39,773 nucleotides of DNA from an uncultured archaeon (GCA_964583985.1 CAZOYD010000029.1:1-39773), one strand, 5' to 3'. Positions 19,363 through 28,434 are shown, counted from the stretch's first letter. Notes: a model not told the origin generated them from the letters alone. A program made the numbers and translations.

Positions 19363-19800
19363 ATGGATTTTGATGACGAATTTGACGAGGAATTTGATGA
19401 AGAATTTGATGAGGATTTCGATGAAGATCTAGACGAAGATTTAAAGGATGATTCAGAAAATTTATCTGAGCCTGCTACTAGCTCAATCACGGATGAAGAA
19501 CCTAAATCTAAAGTTCCAAATCAAATTCCAGAAGGAGAAAAAATATCAATCTTTTTTATGTCAACAATAGGTCCTGGAGAGAAAAAACAAAAATTATTGG
19601 TAAATACAGGAAATACTGTAGGAGCAATCAAAGAGACAGTAGCTAATTTATTTGGATTAGATCCAAATGATTTTCATTTATCTACTGGCGGAATCACTCT
19701 GGATGAACCGTCTACACTGAGCGATTATGGTATTAGGGATGGAGATGACATTTTATTGATTCCAGCAAGTACTGCAGGACTATATTTAATAAAATCATAA
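19363..19800 (+). CDS. Ubiquitin-like protein A (pro-form) with long acidic N-terminal repeats; C-terminus IPASTAG|LYLIKS
   Basis: Beta-grasp pattern TVGAIKETVANLFGLDP..FHLSTGGITLDEPSTLSDYGIRDGDDILLIP; paralogue of 21617..21952. Confidence 0.85.
   Translation: MDFDDEFDEEFDEEFDEDFDEDLDEDLKDDSENLSEPATSSITDEEPKSKVPNQIPEGEKISIFFMSTIGPGEKKQKLLVNTGNTVGAIKETVANLFGLDPNDFHLSTGGITLDEPSTLSDYGIRDGDDILLIPASTAGLYLIKS
19369..19440 (+). repeat. In-frame 12-nt tandem repeat (6 copies) encoding (F/L)D(D/E)(E/D)
   Basis: tttgatgacgaa tttgacgaggaa tttgatgaagaa tttgatgaggat ttcgatgaagat ctagacgaagat. Confidence 0.85.
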
Positions 19801-21616: not shown

Positions 21617-21952
21617 ATGAGCTTTGATAATAACGATTTTGATGAGGAATTAGAACCAGTTAAGTCTAAAACCCCGTCAAGTAAAGTACCCTCGACAGGA
21701 AAAAAGGTGACTCTATATTTCATGTCTACCATTGGTCCTGGTGAAAAGAAAGAGAAACTTACAGTAAATGACGCTAATCAAATAGGTGATATCAAACAAA
21801 CATTAGGAAATCTATTTGGGCTTAATCCAGATGAATTCCATCTCTCTTCAGGTGGAAGAACAATGGATGAAAGTAATCAATTAAAAGATTATAATGTAAG
21901 TGATGGCGACGATATTCTATTAATCCCTGCGAGTACAGCGGGATACTTTTAA
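21617..21952 (+). CDS. Ubiquitin-like protein B (pro-form); C-terminus IPASTAG|YF
   Basis: Ubl core IGDIKQTLGNLFGLNP..FHLSSGGRTMDESNQLKDYNVSDGDDILLIP; SD GGAGTGA; first gene of the E1-E2-JAMM-RING run. Confidence 0.88.
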   Translation: MSFDNNDFDEELEPVKSKTPSSKVPSTGKKVTLYFMSTIGPGEKKEKLTVNDANQIGDIKQTLGNLFGLNPDEFHLSSGGRTMDESNQLKDYNVSDGDDILLIPASTAGYF

Positions 21953-21983
21953 ATAATTCTTTTCATACAATATTATATATGGT

Positions 21984-22019
21984 AAGGGCTTTAAGCCCTT
22001 CAATTTTTTTTATTTTTTT
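21984..22019 (+). terminator. Hairpin plus U-tract between Ubl B and E1
   Basis: AAGGGCT-TTA-AGCCCTT perfect stem followed by CAATTTTTTTTATTTTTTT. Confidence 0.6.
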
Positions 22020-22030
22020 GATTAAAATTA

Positions 22031-23266
22031 ATGGTGATATTAGTGAAAAAAGAATCAGATTTTTTTGCAAAAGGAATGTCGGCAGAAGAAAGAGATTTAT
22101 ATGATCGTCAATTTCGCCTTGAAGGATGGTCTCAAAAATTAATTAAAAACTCTAGAGTACTAATTGCTGGAGTAGGAGGATTAGGGTGTGAAATTGCTAA
22201 GAACTTAGCCATGTTAGGTGTTGGTCATATAGATCTTGTTGATTTAGATATAATCGAACATTCGAACTTTAACCGACAGCTTCTTTTTATTGGGGCAAAA
22301 TTAGGAGAACCTAAAGCTATCGCAGCCGCCAAAAAATTACTTGAAATTAATCCTAACATCACCGTAAAAGGATATCATACATCCTTAGAAAGATTAAATC
22401 CCTCCCTATATCATGAAGCAGATGTCATTATTGGGGGTCTTGATTCAATGAATGCGCGATTAAACTTGAACACTCAATGTGTACGATTTAGAAAACCTTT
22501 AGTAGATGGAGGGGTATCTGGTTATCATGGTCATATTTATACCATCTTTCCTTATCGAAATGCTTGCTATGAATGTAATCCACTACCGGTATTAGAGAAT
22601 GATGAAATGGCAGCTTGTACTGTAGTTGGGATCCCTCGAAAAAGGATTCATTGCTTATTTAAAGGAGATATGGCTTTTAAAGAGAAATTTGATAGGGATC
22701 CTAGTCCCAAAGATATAAATGATATAAAATATATTCAGAAAGTCACAAATGAATTAGTAAATCAACATAATTTCCATCCCGAATTTACTGAAGATGATAT
22801 CGTAAAAATTATTGATCGTCATGATCCTGGTATCATTACAATTAATTCAGTTATTTCTGCATTAGAATCTCATGAGGCAGTGAAGATAATTCACTGGAAT
22901 AATGGACATAAAGGATTAGGAGAACCTATTACAAATTATGTTATTTTTAATGCAATGACAATGAAATTTTATCATATTGAAAAGAGGAGAAATCCAGATT
23001 GTGCTCAATGTGGAAAAAATGTAAGGAGAGTTGTAATAAATATAAGGCCTAGCTCCCCTTGTGCAAATATAATAAAAACATTAGAGAAAAATGGATTTCA
23101 ACTAGATCCTGAGCTAGAACCTTTGATAACCTTACTAGATTTCAATGATATCATAATAGTAGATCTAGAAGAGAGTGTTAAAGAAAATAATCTTAGAAAT
23201 TATGAATTTTTAACGATTGCGGGATTTAAAGGGGGCGAAGTTTATGTTACCCTCAAATTAAAATAA
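22031..23266 (+). CDS. E1 ubiquitin-like activating enzyme (ThiF domain plus catalytic-Cys domain, UBA3/UBA2-like); start may be GTG 22043
   Basis: YDRQ, GVGGLGCE, DLDIIEHSNFNRQLLF, LDSMNAR, PLVDGG, CYEC, AACTVVGIPR..IHC (catalytic Cys), CAQC, and a C-terminal probable ubiquitin-fold domain. Confidence 0.92.
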   Translation: MVILVKKESDFFAKGMSAEERDLYDRQFRLEGWSQKLIKNSRVLIAGVGGLGCEIAKNLAMLGVGHIDLVDLDIIEHSNFNRQLLFIGAKLGEPKAIAAAKKLLEINPNITVKGYHTSLERLNPSLYHEADVIIGGLDSMNARLNLNTQCVRFRKPLVDGGVSGYHGHIYTIFPYRNACYECNPLPVLENDEMAACTVVGIPRKRIHCLFKGDMAFKEKFDRDPSPKDINDIKYIQKVTNELVNQHNFHPEFTEDDIVKIIDRHDPGIITINSVISALESHEAVKIIHWNNGHKGLGEPITNYVIFNAMTMKFYHIEKRRNPDCAQCGKNVRRVVINIRPSSPCANIIKTLEKNGFQLDPELEPLITLLDFNDIIIVDLEESVKENNLRNYEFLTIAGFKGGEVYVTLKLK

Positions 23267-23324
23267 AAAATTATAATAAAAATTAAAAAATATAAAAATT
23301 AAAATAAAATACGGGGTTAAAAAA

Positions 23325-23852
23325 ATGAGTATAAGAAGTAGTCGGGTTTCCCGAGATTTCGCGGGTTTAAAAAAAATGGCACAAAATGGAACTATTGTTC
23401 AATTAAAACCTTTTAATCCAAAAAATAAGAGTATTGATCACTTAGCGATTACAATAAAAGGGCCGAAAGGGACGGCTTATGCAGGAGGTTTATTTAAGTT
23501 GGAAATGAAATTTCCTGCGCAATATCCTGGACAACCACCTTTTGTAAGATTGCATACACCGATATGGCACCCTAATTTTTGGCCAAAACCGAGTGAATAC
23601 AAGGGACAAAGAAATATTTGTTTAGCTTTAGTTGATCCTTCATTAGTTGGCAAAAAAGGAGGATGGAGTCCTTCAAAAACAGCTGTAACCATTGTACAAG
23701 CAATTATTGCCATGTTAAATACTCGAGGAAAATATGTTAATCCGACTGATGTTTTTAATAAAAAAGCAGCAATAGAAATGATGAAAAATCAAAAATTATT
23801 TGAGAAAAAAGTTAAAACTTTGGTAAAGAAATACGCTAACGAAAAGTGGTGA
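23325..23852 (+). CDS. E2 ubiquitin-conjugating enzyme (UBC fold)
   Basis: IKGPKGTAYAGGLFKLEMKFPAQYP..PP, IWHPNF...NICL, WSP. Confidence 0.93.
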   Translation: MSIRSSRVSRDFAGLKKMAQNGTIVQLKPFNPKNKSIDHLAITIKGPKGTAYAGGLFKLEMKFPAQYPGQPPFVRLHTPIWHPNFWPKPSEYKGQRNICLALVDPSLVGKKGGWSPSKTAVTIVQAIIAMLNTRGKYVNPTDVFNKKAAIEMMKNQKLFEKKVKTLVKKYANEKW

Positions 23853-23859
23853 GTCTAAG

Positions 23860-24657
23860 ATGAAGATTGATGACAAAAACAGTGAAACAATTCGGGATAC
23901 GATTAAACAAAAAATAAAGGAAAAAATCAAGAAAGAAATACTTGAAGAAGTATATACCGAGCTACAACTCGAAGAATTACAAGAAGAAATAACTGCTGAA
24001 ATTTTTGATGCAAAACCTTTAGGGCATTCAAAAGATATAAAAACATACTTAGAACCTATTCCAATGGAACCTGTAATAACTATAGCTAAAAATGAAAGAA
24101 TTGAAGCAAAAATACAAATAACTGTAAAAGCTATCCTTAAAATTTCAAGCCATTCGTTGAAATATGCGAATTCTAAAATTAGGAAAGAGAACTGGGTTGA
24201 GGTAATAGGATTACTCTCTGGTAGATATGACAATGGAATACTTTATTTAGAAGATGCGTATCCAATGGGTCATGGTACTGCAGTTTATGCTGAAATTAAA
24301 GATTATAATAACTTTACAAGAGCATATGAAGACATTGTAAAAAATAAGCAATTTATCTGTGGATGGTATCATTCGCATCCCTCATATGGATGTTTCATGT
24401 CTAAAGAAGACTTAGGAACTCAAAGGCGATATCAGAAATTTTGGGATAAATCAGTTGCCCTTGTAATTGATCCATATCAAATTAACGGAAAATCTATCGG
24501 CTTTGAGATCTATCGTGCAAATTTTAATACAAAAAAATGGTTTTCCGTGCCATTTGATATCAAAGGAAGTTTAGATGTAAGGATGCTACCCGAAATATTA
24601 GAATTCATGAATCCTATTATTGAAGGTAAACCTGCCTACTTAGAATATGATGAGTGA
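23860..24657 (+). CDS. JAB1/MPN (JAMM) metalloprotease, CSN5/Rpn11-like
   Basis: EVIGLLSG, GWYHSHPSYGCFMSKED (HxH-x10-D), TQ..YQ, ALVIDP. Confidence 0.93.
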   Translation: MKIDDKNSETIRDTIKQKIKEKIKKEILEEVYTELQLEELQEEITAEIFDAKPLGHSKDIKTYLEPIPMEPVITIAKNERIEAKIQITVKAILKISSHSLKYANSKIRKENWVEVIGLLSGRYDNGILYLEDAYPMGHGTAVYAEIKDYNNFTRAYEDIVKNKQFICGWYHSHPSYGCFMSKEDLGTQRRYQKFWDKSVALVIDPYQINGKSIGFEIYRANFNTKKWFSVPFDIKGSLDVRMLPEILEFMNPIIEGKPAYLEYDE

Positions 24658-24686
24658 AGAAAAATTTTAATTGGTGAGATTAAACG

Positions 24687-25838
24687 ATGGTAAAAAAAAA
24701 ACAGAAAGCGTTAGTAATTATTCTCATTGTTTTTTCTGTAATAGGTATGATTCATGGTTTAATTTCAGCTTCATTAAATAATTTTTTAACTTGGCTATTA
24801 ATTGGATTGTGGTTAATATTTACAATAAAAATTTATAATAATATCAAACGACACCGTGAGTTTAATTCCCCCCATAATACGGCTTTTTTCGTGATCATTC
24901 CTTTATTAATAGGAGTATTTTATTCTATCTGGGGATCATATACAGGAATTTTAGGCGAAAACTTGATATTAGGTTCTAATTTCTATTTTAGTTTATGGAG
25001 TCTCATATTTGGTTTGCCTTTTGTAATTTATGGTTCACACTCAATCTATCGATGTTTTAAAAAATATAATGTAATCTATTTTGGAACCAAGTCAGTGAAA
25101 GCGAAGGGGTTAGGCTATTTTTTGTCAATTTCAGTTATTATTGCCATCATTTCTTATTGGATTGCTTTTTATAATGTGAGTGAGTTTTATTCACCATTAA
25201 CACCACTCCGTTTTTCATTGGATCTTAACCTTTTGCTCCTACTCATTATTACTATTTTCAACCTAATCATTTTTGGCTTTATAAGTAACCGTTCCAATAT
25301 ACCAGAATTAACACGTGATTATATCGCACAACGTACTAGGCGAATTAATAACTTAACTACCCCATCAACACAAAATAACAGTACTCGTACAAGAACTCAA
25401 ACAATTCAAACACCAACAAGAACAACCAGAACAACACGCACAACCACCACAAGACCCCGATCTATAAATGCACCTACATCTAGTTCTCGATCAACGAAAA
25501 CGCAAACAACTAAATCAGTTCGATCTCAAAGAACAATAAATGCCCCTAAAATTCGGGATTTTAGCAAATTTAAACCCAAAGGTTCGTTAATCTCAGAAGA
25601 CGACTTCAAGTGTATATTCTGCTTTAAACTACCTAAACTTCCAGAGGATAAAAATAAAGGAATCGTAATCTGTCCAAACTGCAGATATCCTGCTCATGCT
25701 GACGAATTTATAGCTTGGATGAAAACTTCAAATCTTTGTTCTCGTTGCAGTGCTCCCATTCCGTCAGGTTTTAGACGAAATCCTCGGATTATCACTACAA
25801 AAAATTATATTGCTATCTACAGACATTTTCTAAAATAA
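24687..25838 (+). CDS. Polytopic membrane protein (about 6 TM) with Thr/Arg-rich linker and C-terminal RING-like domain; putative membrane E3 ligase
   Basis: Six hydrophobic segments; CIFC...CPNC....HADE...W.....CSRC; last gene of the Ubl-E1-E2-JAMM operon. Confidence 0.8.
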   Translation: MVKKKQKALVIILIVFSVIGMIHGLISASLNNFLTWLLIGLWLIFTIKIYNNIKRHREFNSPHNTAFFVIIPLLIGVFYSIWGSYTGILGENLILGSNFYFSLWSLIFGLPFVIYGSHSIYRCFKKYNVIYFGTKSVKAKGLGYFLSISVIIAIISYWIAFYNVSEFYSPLTPLRFSLDLNLLLLLIITIFNLIIFGFISNRSNIPELTRDYIAQRTRRINNLTTPSTQNNSTRTRTQTIQTPTRTTRTTRTTTTRPRSINAPTSSSRSTKTQTTKSVRSQRTINAPKIRDFSKFKPKGSLISEDDFKCIFCFKLPKLPEDKNKGIVICPNCRYPAHADEFIAWMKTSNLCSRCSAPIPSGFRRNPRIITTKNYIAIYRHFLK

Positions 25839-25978
25839 TTTACTTAAAAGATTTTTTTTTAAGCTAAGCTTGAACCAATATAAGAGTTTTATAGATGATT
25901 TAGAGAAACTCACAAATTAATTCATAGTCAAAAAATGTATTGTAAAATAATATAAGATTTCAATTCGAGTTCTCTAAG

Positions 25979-27157
25979 TTATAAGCCCAAAAAACCCTTC
26001 AATAGTCCTTTCGAAAAATCTTTAACAAATCCTTTTGCTGCATCTTTTGATATTGATGTAATAAAACTATCTCTCTGTGTTTTACCTAATCTATAAGTTT
26101 GCCATTGTGGTTCAATTCTTGAGTAATTAGATAAATAGGAAGCCTTAAGAAATTTCTCAATTGCAATATCATCCTTTGAGCGAATTACACATTCGATAGC
26201 TTCAAGTTTCTTTCCTAATGTTAAATTTATAGAAGCTTTTAAACCCCAAGCTAAGCTTAAATCTGGGTCAATTTCGATAGCTTTATTAGCACAGCTCAAA
26301 GCAATATCCACATAGCTCTGGGTTTTATCATATGAATATAGAATAGTATATGCAAACCCTAAAAAACATAACGCATCTTGATGTTTTGGATTAATAATAA
26401 GTACTTTTTCAAAATAATGAATAGCATTTTTACAATTGAAGATGTTAAGTTCAATATCAATAGTTAAATCTATAGGTGACGGCTCTTTTACCTGATTAAT
26501 TGATAAAATACCAAGATAGTAATGAGAATATAGATCATCTTCATTTAGCAAAATGGCTTTTTTCAATTGTACTTCAGCATCTAGAAAGTTCTTCTGAAAA
26601 AAATAAACTCTACCAAGGTAATAACTTACTGATTTATAATCAAGTTGTACTTGGATAACTCTTTTAAACCAAGATTCGGCTTCTATATAACTTTGTTTTT
26701 TGTAATGTAATATACCAAGATAATACCAAGCGTCAATATATCCATTATCCAAACCAAGAACTTGATTAAATTGTAGCTCAGCATCTTCATATCTCTTCAT
26801 TTCTAAGTATGTACGGCCTAGAGCGTGAACTGAACGGATATAATTCACATCAATTTCAAGTGCTTTTTTGTACTGTTGTTCAGCATTAACGTAATTTCTT
26901 TGCACAAAATAAAGATTTGCAAGATTATATCGCGCATATTTATTATTTGGATCTAATTGTAGAGTTTTTATGAAACAGCGCTCTGCATCATTATACTTTT
27001 TTTGTTCTTGGTATGCACGACTGAGATAATATTGTGCATCAACATGATTTTCATCTAATTCTAGCACTTTTTTAAAAATGGTTTCAGCATCAACATAATT
27101 TCGTTCGTCAAGACTTTTCGATCCAAGTTTGTATAATTCATTTACTTGGTTTTCCAT
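25979..27157 (-). CDS. Tetratricopeptide repeat protein
   Basis: Repeated A.Y.LG..Y....Y.DAE..F.K.L.LD units. Confidence 0.9.
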   Translation of the reverse strand: MENQVNELYKLGSKSLDERNYVDAETIFKKVLELDENHVDAQYYLSRAYQEQKKYNDAERCFIKTLQLDPNNKYARYNLANLYFVQRNYVNAEQQYKKALEIDVNYIRSVHALGRTYLEMKRYEDAELQFNQVLGLDNGYIDAWYYLGILHYKKQSYIEAESWFKRVIQVQLDYKSVSYYLGRVYFFQKNFLDAEVQLKKAILLNEDDLYSHYYLGILSINQVKEPSPIDLTIDIELNIFNCKNAIHYFEKVLIINPKHQDALCFLGFAYTILYSYDKTQSYVDIALSCANKAIEIDPDLSLAWGLKASINLTLGKKLEAIECVIRSKDDIAIEKFLKASYLSNYSRIEPQWQTYRLGKTQRDSFITSISKDAAKGFVKDFSKGLLKGFLGL

Positions 27158-27477: not shown

Positions 27478-28434
27478 GTGAAAAACATCCCTAAATTCAA
27501 AAAAGATTTGCAAAACTCTGGTTCTGCCATATCCATTGGAATTGACAAGGTTGGTATTATTGGAGTCGACAAGAAAGTTGAAATTGTTCAAAAGAATAAA
27601 CGCTACTCTTTCTACCCTAAAATCTCAGCATTAATATCGCTCCCACCAAATCAGAGAGGGATACACATGAGCCGTAGCAGTGAAACCATAGAAGAAGTTA
27701 TCAATGAAAGTGTATACAAGCCAGCTTCTACAATTGAAATGGTATCAGATAGAATAGCAAGAAAGTTATTCAAGGAGCATCCATATACAACGAAAATCGA
27801 AGTCAAACTTGAGGGCAAGATGATTATCCAATTAAAGGAAAACAATCATCGAGTAATCCAGAAAACTTATGATGTAAGTTCACTGGTGTATGGAACTAGA
27901 ACCGAGTTGGGTGAAGAAGAATTTAATTATTTTATTGGTGCTAAGGCAATGGGCATGTCATGCTGTCCCTGTGCCATCGATCTCAGTAAAGAATACGCTG
28001 AATCGGTCATGAAAAACAGGGAGGATATCAACATCTCAAATGAAGATATTAACACGCTCTTAAACATTTTACCCTTTTCATCTCATAATCAGAGAACTAT
28101 AGGTTCTATAACAGTTCAGATTAAAGATATCGACAAGCAACAAATTGACGTTCTTGACATTATCGATGTTATTGAGGAGTCAATGAGTGGGAGGATTCAA
28201 AGTGTTTTAAAGCGACCAGATGAAGCGCAATTAGTACGAACTGCCCATCTTAATCCCCTATTTGCCGAAGATATCGTGAGAGGGATGGCAAAAAATTTCT
28301 ACGCTAAAGGATTTCCGGATCTAGGTGAAGGAGAGATCATTTTTCAAGTAGAAAGTTTTGAGTCTATCCATCCCTATAATGTATATTGCGAGTTAAAAAT
28401 GAATTATTCCGAGCTCGAAAAAATGATGAAATGA
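27478..28434 (+). CDS. mptA: GTP cyclohydrolase MptA (FolE2 family, methanopterin)
   Basis: QRGIHMSRS, GMSCCPCA, SHNQR, LKRPDE, NPLFAEDIVR, ESIHP. Confidence 0.9.
   Translation: MKNIPKFKKDLQNSGSAISIGIDKVGIIGVDKKVEIVQKNKRYSFYPKISALISLPPNQRGIHMSRSSETIEEVINESVYKPASTIEMVSDRIARKLFKEHPYTTKIEVKLEGKMIIQLKENNHRVIQKTYDVSSLVYGTRTELGEEEFNYFIGAKAMGMSCCPCAIDLSKEYAESVMKNREDINISNEDINTLLNILPFSSHNQRTIGSITVQIKDIDKQQIDVLDIIDVIEESMSGRIQSVLKRPDEAQLVRTAHLNPLFAEDIVRGMAKNFYAKGFPDLGEGEIIFQVESFESIHPYNVYCELKMNYSELEKMMK

Follow-up and report, generated by a model that had tools for sequence, protein, structure and literature searches.

A polytopic membrane protein with a variant RING finger as the candidate ligase of an archaeal ubiquitin-like operon

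The window analysed here is a 39,773-nt stretch of DNA from an uncultured archaeon, an Asgard of the Loki type (GCA_964583985.1 CAZOYD010000029.1:1-39773), with a G+C content of ~30%. On its plus strand, positions 24687..25838 hold an open reading frame (ORF) that starts with ATG and encodes 383 amino acids followed by a stop codon. This is the fifth and last gene of a same-strand run of five, encoding in order a ubiquitin-like modifier (Ubl), an E1, an E2, a JAB protease and the protein in question, which we call TM-RING for its transmembrane (TM) helices and RING finger. We propose that TM-RING is probably the operon's membrane-embedded RING-type ubiquitin ligase (E3) or an E2-recruiting factor. 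A membrane-anchored RING E3 is the best explanation of the sequence because the homology and the fold of the finger, the conservation of its predicted E2-contact positions, an unbroken operon linkage and a lysine desert next to the finger all favour it.

The core of the finger (C309 to C354; 25611..25748, plus strand), delimited by conservation and codon analysis, has the pattern C309-x2-C312-x16-C329-x2-C332-x4-H337-x2-E340-x3-W344-x6-C351-x2-C354. Seven of the eight ligand positions are thus Cys or His, and position 6 is an invariant Glu340. Across 35 orthologues at 19-64% identity, no residues are invariant other than P297, all six Cys, H337, E340, W344 and Y374. A preliminary description of this DNA had read the same C-x2-C...H-x2-E-x3-W...C-x2-C pattern, without the x16 spacing between ligands 2 and 3, and had noted a retained Trp; both readings hold, since W344 (codon 25716-18), at the RING-typical position four residues after ligand 6, is one of the invariant residues. 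So does the H-x2-E pair, whose conservation it had proposed to check. The residue two positions after ligand 1 is always hydrophobic in the same orthologues (F, I, L or V; F311 in the window protein).

The ligand codons lie at 25611-13, 25620-22, 25671-73, 25680-82, 25695-97 (H337), 25704-06 (E340), 25737-39 and 25746-48. Among 89 distinct DNA versions of the gene, synonymous variation is seen at every Cys, His and Glu ligand codon, E340 being encoded by GAA in 78 and by GAG in 11. The neighbouring D339 is invariant in close relatives and is lost in the wide family, indicating that E340 is the constrained carboxylate. The equivalent position is occupied by His in soluble sister proteins and by Cys in paralogues within the genome. 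A fixed Glu at a predicted zinc-ligand position marks a RING subtype.

A profile of the finger retrieved just 117 proteins from 1.84 billion representatives. The majority are this membrane protein, all complete copies of which keep H-x2-E and the Trp four residues on; the weakest matches are soluble and carry H-x2-H, or in one case H-x2-D, at the corresponding position. When nine of these soluble sisters were scanned, seven reached the cut-off of Pfam zf-RING_2 (PF13639) and two fell slightly below it. Alignment of the finger with seven soluble sisters by hhalign gave a probability of 98.4% (E 4.6e-15); its 55 columns contain no gap, and HADEF falls on HRDHF; four of these seven were among the scanned proteins, and all four exceed the PF13639 cut-off. 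The gapless placement of Glu over the sisters' His agrees with the preliminary assignment of Glu to the sixth ligand position. Among the 35 diverse family members, 10 match zf-RING_2 and 9 match Prok-RING_1 at E <= 0.01. From these comparisons we conclude that the finger belongs to the RINGs and is a homologue of archaeal RING-H2 fingers, Glu340 occupying the predicted metal-ligand position 6.

The RING domain with its flanking helices comprises residues 297-383 (25575..25835, plus strand) and was modelled by AlphaFold with a predicted local distance difference test score (pLDDT) of 75.7. The model contains an N-terminal helix (304-310), a beta-hairpin (326-337), a central helix (338-347) and C-terminal helices (360-364 and 371-382). 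The hairpin, with strands at 326-328 and 335-337, bears C329 and C332; the central helix begins just after H337 and bears E340 and W344. Searching the PDB with Foldseek gave probabilities of up to 1.0 for this model, the top matches being the RING-like zinc domains of IFT-A and GATOR2, followed by RING1B/BMI1, the HRD1 RING, EL5, RNF24, RNF38 and U-boxes. With VIA-align, nearly all of the best 50 rows were RING or U-box structures (Z 4.5-5.8; root-mean-square deviation 2.1-6.5 over 48-70 residues); these Z values are modest, and the weight lies in the uniformity of the list.

Linkage of TM-RING to the ubiquitin-like genes is close and persistent. Gaps between the five genes of the run are 7-78 nt. 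The run opens with the Ubl gene (21617..21952, plus strand; Pfam PF00240 ubiquitin, E 2.2e-7), whose synteny is kept in related loci, and continues with an E1-like activating enzyme of the ThiF family (22031..23266, plus strand; PF00899, E 1.6e-57), an E2-like conjugating enzyme (23325..23852, plus strand; PF00179 UQ_con, E 3.1e-26) and a JAB/MPN metalloprotease (23860..24657, plus strand; PF01398, E 8.8e-14), the constant immediate upstream neighbour of TM-RING. On contigs taken from one genome per species, 135 stretches encode a relative of TM-RING, and 80 loci were kept. The JAB gene lies immediately upstream of TM-RING in 80/80 of these species loci, and E2, E1 and Ubl precede it where the contig extends far enough. 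E1 is syntenic, at 72-89% identity, in 67 of the 80; the remaining 13 loci start downstream of E1. The operon E2 is ~90% identical between species, with an invariant HPN motif, Cys99 and WSPS loop. In ten loci of distant groups, whose TM-RING proteins share ~27-38% identity, the adjacency of E2, JAB and TM-RING is intact and Ubl and E1 lie alongside, indicating that the linkage has outlasted the divergence of several Asgard classes.

Among 5.8 billion proteins searched, 378 are homologues of TM-RING at E <= 1e-3. All 378 are named 'hypothetical protein' with no Pfam domain recorded, and their NCBI labels are Lokiarchaeota or Promethearchaeota. The family is unannotated. NCBI labels conflict among close homologues at 60-65% identity (Lokiarchaeota, Hodarchaeota, Odinarchaeota and Hermodarchaeota), and we did not use them for naming classes. 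A genome scan found matches in 206 of 331 genomes of the phylum. Full-length matches occur in 106/116 genomes of the window's own family and, in other classes, in 26/27 genomes of family f12, 8/9 of f14, 18/19 of f15 and 2/2 of f25; the large family f28 had a match in none of its 71 genomes in the same scan. The gene is single-copy in most genomes. We also searched for fused or longer forms (815-2325 amino acids); none turned up, which is weak evidence. A literature search, which stopped short of supplementary tables in the main papers on Asgard genomes, found no paper on this family of membrane RING proteins.

The N-terminal 199 residues (24687..25283, plus strand) form a membrane domain of six helices, as judged by hydropathy, charge distribution, AlphaFold helices and conservation. 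Hydropathy delimits six hydrophobic segments (8-26, 29-47, 65-83, 97-116, 141-160 and 178-199), and in an AlphaFold model built from 31 homologues six long helices coincide with them, with a short beta-hairpin in the loop between helices 4 and 5. The count of about six helices in the preliminary description is thus borne out. The N-terminus, loops 2-3 and 4-5 and the stretch behind the sixth helix are where Lys and Arg residues concentrate; loops 3-4 and 5-6 have hardly any. By the positive-inside rule, this distribution would place both ends of the protein, and the finger with them, in the cytoplasm, on the same side as the E1 and E2, consistent with the polytopic protein with a cytosolic finger described previously. 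Two cytoplasmic loops are conserved, HREFNSPHNT (56-65) and YRCFKKYNVIYFGTKSVKA (121-139). In the close family, the membrane domain is as conserved as the finger, and polar residues in or beside the helices are invariant (H23, N52, R57, E58, N60, S61, N64, T65, S80, T86, S102 and S105). In the wide family, its identity falls to near-random levels while the topology and a few motifs persist and the finger stays fixed.

Between the membrane domain and the finger lies a disordered, basic tether rich in Thr, Arg and Ser (residues 200-296; 25284..25574, plus strand), defined by a pLDDT of 27-50, by composition and by Lys/Arg (K/R) statistics over 157 orthologues. The 95 residues counted include 25 T, 15 R and 11 S. 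The preliminary description had this composition right and the length, which it put at ~70 residues, too short. It had also pointed out a duplicated motif, RSINAP/RTINAP, which is present at 258-263 and 282-287; orthologues do not keep it, and on their sequences the duplication is idiosyncratic to the window protein.

What orthologues do keep is the scarcity of lysine. Residues 200-270 of the window protein contain none, and the whole lysine-free run spans 141-270. The K/(K+R) ratio of the tether is 0.25, compared with 0.71 in the window's other ORFs of at least 200 amino acids, and 0.71 is the value expected at 30% G+C. In orthologues the tether ratio is 0.27 (121 close) and 0.24 (36 distant), compared with 0.54-0.64 in the RING part, and the median lysine-free run in the tether is 61 residues in close and 85 in distant orthologues. 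The rare tether lysines sit in the two-fifths closest to the RING across the 157 orthologues. AAA (Lys) and AGA (Arg) are one transition apart; we reasoned that Arg retained over such evolutionary depth indicates selection against lysine. We conclude that the tether is a conserved lysine desert, newly recognised here. Conserved lysine deserts are reported from disordered parts of the eukaryotic ubiquitin-proteasome machinery, E3s among them, and there block unwanted self-ubiquitylation (PMC10169902, PMC10665810, 10.1101/2023.01.18.524605); proteins of the eukaryotic ubiquitin system, and E3s such as Slx5, are enriched in them (PMC10169902; 10.1101/2023.01.18.524605). By analogy, the lysine desert would fit a protein working beside a charged E2, which is indirect support for the proposed role.

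Put together, these features suggest how the protein might work. Zinc site 1 would be formed by C309, C312, H337 and E340 and site 2 by C329, C332, C351 and C354, in a cross-brace arrangement. F311, W344 and the loop between ligands 7 and 8 would bind the operon E2 charged with Ubl, and the Ubl would be transferred to lysines of proteins in or at the membrane. Picking or holding these substrates might fall to the membrane domain, which is conserved along with its cytoplasmic loops, while the lysine-free, Arg-rich tether would give the RING reach and spare the ligase self-tagging. Like those of RING1B/BMI1-type RINGs, the flanking helices may serve in dimerisation. Prediction of a complex between the operon E2 and the RING domain returned a score of 0.00, which counts neither for nor against this mechanism.

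Several observations weigh against a ligase. The window finger itself falls below all Pfam RING cut-offs: Prok-RING_1 (PF14446) gives E 0.11, or 12.9 bits against a cut-off of 29.1, zf-RING_16 gives E 0.4 and PF13639 is absent even at E <= 10; a genome-wide scan with PF13639 and PF14446 misses the gene. Ligand 8 is followed by Ser or Asn in the 35 orthologues instead of Arg or Lys; the 'linchpin' is missing, a point against a fully canonical mechanism. Glu seldom serves as a ligand in structural zinc sites, and site 1 may be altered or empty. By sequence as well as structure, the finger's best PDB matches are zinc domains at the C-termini of IFT144/WDR19 and GATOR2 subunits, which are mainly structural joints. 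The genome encodes six further RING-like ORFs, three of them above the zf-RING_2 cut-off. Lastly, an Arg-rich, Lys-poor tether can also reflect lipid or nucleic-acid binding, or phosphorylation. Much of this would be expected if the finger were a non-catalytic RING-like scaffold that oligomerises, or docks the JAB protease, the Ubl or the membrane-tethered Ubl at the membrane, with a soluble RING protein as the real E3. The C-terminal RING-like domains of IFT-A, GATOR2, SEA and HOPS would be the model for such a scaffold: IFT144/WDR19 is the best PDB sequence match (E 0.024, common motif CP-x-C-x-[FY]-P-A...C-x2-C), IFT-A and GATOR2 head the Foldseek list, and the RING-flanking helices are like those of dimeric RINGs. 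However, the PDB sequence matches are marginal (E 0.012-0.07), and the predicted E2-contact positions, namely the hydrophobic residue after ligand 1 and W344, are invariant in the family, whereas IFT144/WDR19 does not keep ligands 5 and 6 or the Trp. Moreover, the other RING genes of the genome are unlinked to the operon, and the lysine desert suits exposure to a charged E2. A pure scaffold is the main rival to the ligase; we consider it unlikely, with a small but real chance of being correct.

Alternatively, the membrane domain could be the working part, as a transporter, channel or membrane enzyme, and the RING could serve mainly to couple that domain's own turnover or gating to the Ubl system, making TM-RING a regulated substrate and not a general ligase. 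Conservation of the membrane domain equal to that of the finger in the close family, and its invariant polar residues, are as this predicts, and two of the 35 diverse members weakly match the Pfam PFF1_TM model (vacuolar membrane protease transmembrane domain; best E 2.2e-4), a match that may be compositional. In the wide family, however, it is the membrane domain that diverges to near-random identity and the finger that stays fixed. Nor was any transporter or enzyme family found: the membrane domain gave nothing significant in Pfam, no membrane-protein match in the PDB with Foldseek, just heterogeneous helical bundles (Z <= 9.3) among 48,161 chains with VIA-align, and no usable match in the ESM Atlas. 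A lysine-avoiding tether is also the opposite of what self-tagging would call for, although lysines return near the RING. We regard this explanation as quite improbable. Least credible of all is a PHD-type or other reader finger for a peptide or Ubl with no E2-activating role. The spacing between ligands 3 and 4 (x2) and between ligands 4 and 5 (x4), and the C4H...C2 order, are those of PHD rather than RING-v fingers (PMC5240574), but ligand 6 is Glu, unlike C4HC3, the Trp two residues before ligand 7 is replaced by Asn349, and the finger has both the Trp and the central helix typical of RINGs. In Pfam, PHD models match neither the window protein nor any of the 35 relatives, and the listed rows of the two structure searches (Foldseek and VIA-align) contain no PHD, showing RING and U-box folds instead; the finger is, in addition, homologous to proteins that exceed the zf-RING_2 cut-off. 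On these grounds we rejected this reading, and the preliminary call of a RING finger stands.

Several features surround the gene. A Shine-Dalgarno-like GGTGA (24673..24677, plus strand), read from the sequence, lies 9 nt 5' of the ATG. A run of nine T residues 3' of the stop codon (25852..25860, plus strand) is likely the end of the transcription unit, and the next gene is convergent. This neighbour encodes a TPR-repeat protein (25979..27157, minus strand) and is followed by a folE2-type GTP cyclohydrolase gene (27478..28434, plus strand). Most related loci have a folE2-type gene downstream of TM-RING, as a rule on the other strand; in the window, the TPR gene intervenes between the two. Upstream of the five-gene run are genes for a second Ubl paralogue with an N-terminal acidic arm (19363..19800, plus strand), a membrane-tethered Ubl and a winged-helix regulator. 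The acidic arm has a net charge of ~-18 (45 loci) and the TM-RING tether one of ~+20.6, opposite in sign and similar in size. Covariation of the two charges across species is not significant (rho 0.19, p 0.21); their lengths correlate weakly (rho 0.36, p 0.016, uncorrected for phylogeny). DNA near-identical to 21617-25838 was found in 11 sequencing runs, chiefly 2019 salt-marsh sediment metagenomes, at shares of 0.2-0.93; the window may derive from one of these samples. Two metatranscriptome runs contained small shares of operon words, which we do not count as evidence of expression.

The six further RING-like ORFs of the genome (G000:C4:78533-78655, G000:C59:6388-6516, G000:C6:83669-83803, G000:C16:52291-52419, G000:C24:30860-30994 and G000:C19:29979-30110) are all soluble, and none is linked to the operon. 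Their fingers have the spacing C-x2-C-x4-H-x2-[C/H], for example C-x2-C-x4-H-x2-C-x3-W in the paralogues. Two of the six are paralogues of ~375 amino acids with two RING-like fingers each. The sister family aligned with the TM-RING finger (P0225, P0230-P0234 and P0239) consists of small, soluble proteins with an N-terminal zinc ribbon, a helical stretch and an ISGEKCIICLQ motif, followed by a RING-H2-type finger, CPNC-x-YAGH-x2-HF-x2-W, and a conserved C-terminal strand.

No known prokaryotes are more closely related to eukaryotes than the Asgard archaea, whose ubiquitin systems are used to model how the eukaryotic system arose. Membrane-bound ubiquitin ligation underlies endoplasmic reticulum-associated degradation (ERAD), receptor down-regulation and sorting by the ESCRT complexes. 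The archaeal E3s tested to date are small soluble RING proteins (PMC5654768; 10.1101/2023.07.25.550441). If TM-RING is the operon's E3, conserved as such in most Loki-type genomes and several further Asgard classes, membrane-bound ubiquitin ligation would be older than eukaryotes, and membrane proteins would be the first substrates to seek. The lysine desert offers an easily tested sign of an encounter with a charged E2. Since current Pfam models miss a RING with a Glu ligand, genome surveys of E3s in Asgard archaea have probably overlooked the family; a survey of Asgard ubiquitin and ESCRT genes, for example, used IPR018611 alone for E3s (PMC9192718) and would miss TM-RING. A bolder proposal, speculative and in our view doubtful, is that the family is a prokaryotic forerunner of eukaryotic membrane ubiquitin ligases, with three differences in construction: the carboxylate of a Cys2-His-Glu zinc site would make the folding or activity of the RING switchable by pH, metal or redox state, the lysine-free, Arg-rich tether would protect the ligase from itself and, with its net charge of about +20, might capture the acidic arm (about -18) of the second Ubl. 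Tagging would then be organised at the membrane by a dedicated, substrate-selecting membrane domain in Loki-type archaea and several other Asgard classes.

Among known systems, the layout of TM-RING, several membrane helices with a cytoplasmic RING that would meet a cytoplasmic E2, is that of Hrd1/gp78, TRC8, RNF121 and MARCH6/Doa10, and the HRD1 RING (6f98) is among the structural matches of the finger. Beyond this bare layout, the analogy to Hrd1 and ERAD and the quality-control label offered earlier find no support; the preliminary description itself made no claim of homology between the TM part and Hrd1. No Hrd1 chain was among the Foldseek or VIA-align matches of the full-length model, where generic helical bundles came up (Z <= 9.3), and Pfam and the ESM Atlas likewise gave no match of the membrane domain to Hrd1, Doa10 or another membrane family. 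The operon encodes Ubl, E1, E2 and JAB only, without Hrd3, Der1 or Cdc48-recruiting partners, the rest of the genome being unsearched for these. Unlike Hrd1-type ligases, TM-RING carries its RING at the extreme C-terminus behind a long tether.

For the variant ligand, our literature search found no RING type with Glu, and the nearest precedent is in plants, where RING-D, RING-S/T and RING-G have Asp, Ser/Thr or Gly at ligand 5 or 6 (PMC5240574). These modified RINGs are sporadic RING-HC variants with a single residue between ligands 3 and 4, whereas in TM-RING the Glu is ancient and fixed family-wide and ligands 3 and 4 form C-x2-C. Among eukaryotic zinc domains, the C-terminal domains of IFT144/WDR19 and GATOR2/SEA share CP-x-C-x-[FY]-P-A...C-x2-C with the finger at marginal scores. 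They differ in standing behind a beta-propeller and an alpha-solenoid and in having no conserved ligand 5 or 6 or Trp. The resemblance to IFT144/WDR19 covers the second half of the finger (25671-25760), and relatives of TM-RING weakly match the Pfam IFT121 and IFT122 zinc-finger models. Archaeal RINGs and the C-terminal RING-like domains of protocoatomer proteins may share an origin, or the likeness may be convergent.

Bacterial members of Prok-RING_1 (PF14446) bear membrane helices, as the Pfam entry has it, and the family, for which Burroughs, Iyer and Aravind (2011) is the reference, reportedly consists of prokaryotic RINGs linked to Ubl/E1/E2/JAB neighbourhoods. The window protein falls below the cut-off of this model, and the best E-value among its relatives is 8.4e-5. 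Prokaryotic RINGs have been described as C4HC3 (PMC11354881). Active RING E3s are known from the ESCRT-linked cluster of a Helarchaeial archaeon (bioRxiv 10.1101/2023.07.25.550441) and from the operon of Caldiarchaeum subterraneum, where the E3 srfp requires I30, W58 and the 'linchpin' Arg69 for activity (PMC5654768). In contrast to srfp, which is small and soluble, with His as ligand 6 and the essential Arg69 after ligand 8, TM-RING has 383 residues, six membrane helices, a 95-residue lysine-poor tether, Glu as ligand 6 and Ser or Asn after ligand 8, the missing linchpin being one of the points already counted against a ligase. Like the srfp E3s, TM-RING is encoded in a Ubl/E1/E2/JAB cluster; both have the archaeal type of RING with an extra Cys at ligand 4, for which an additional Cys and out-of-register C3/H4 have been noted (PMC5654768), and TM-RING keeps the equivalents of I30 and W58 as the hydrophobic residue after ligand 1 (F311) and W344.

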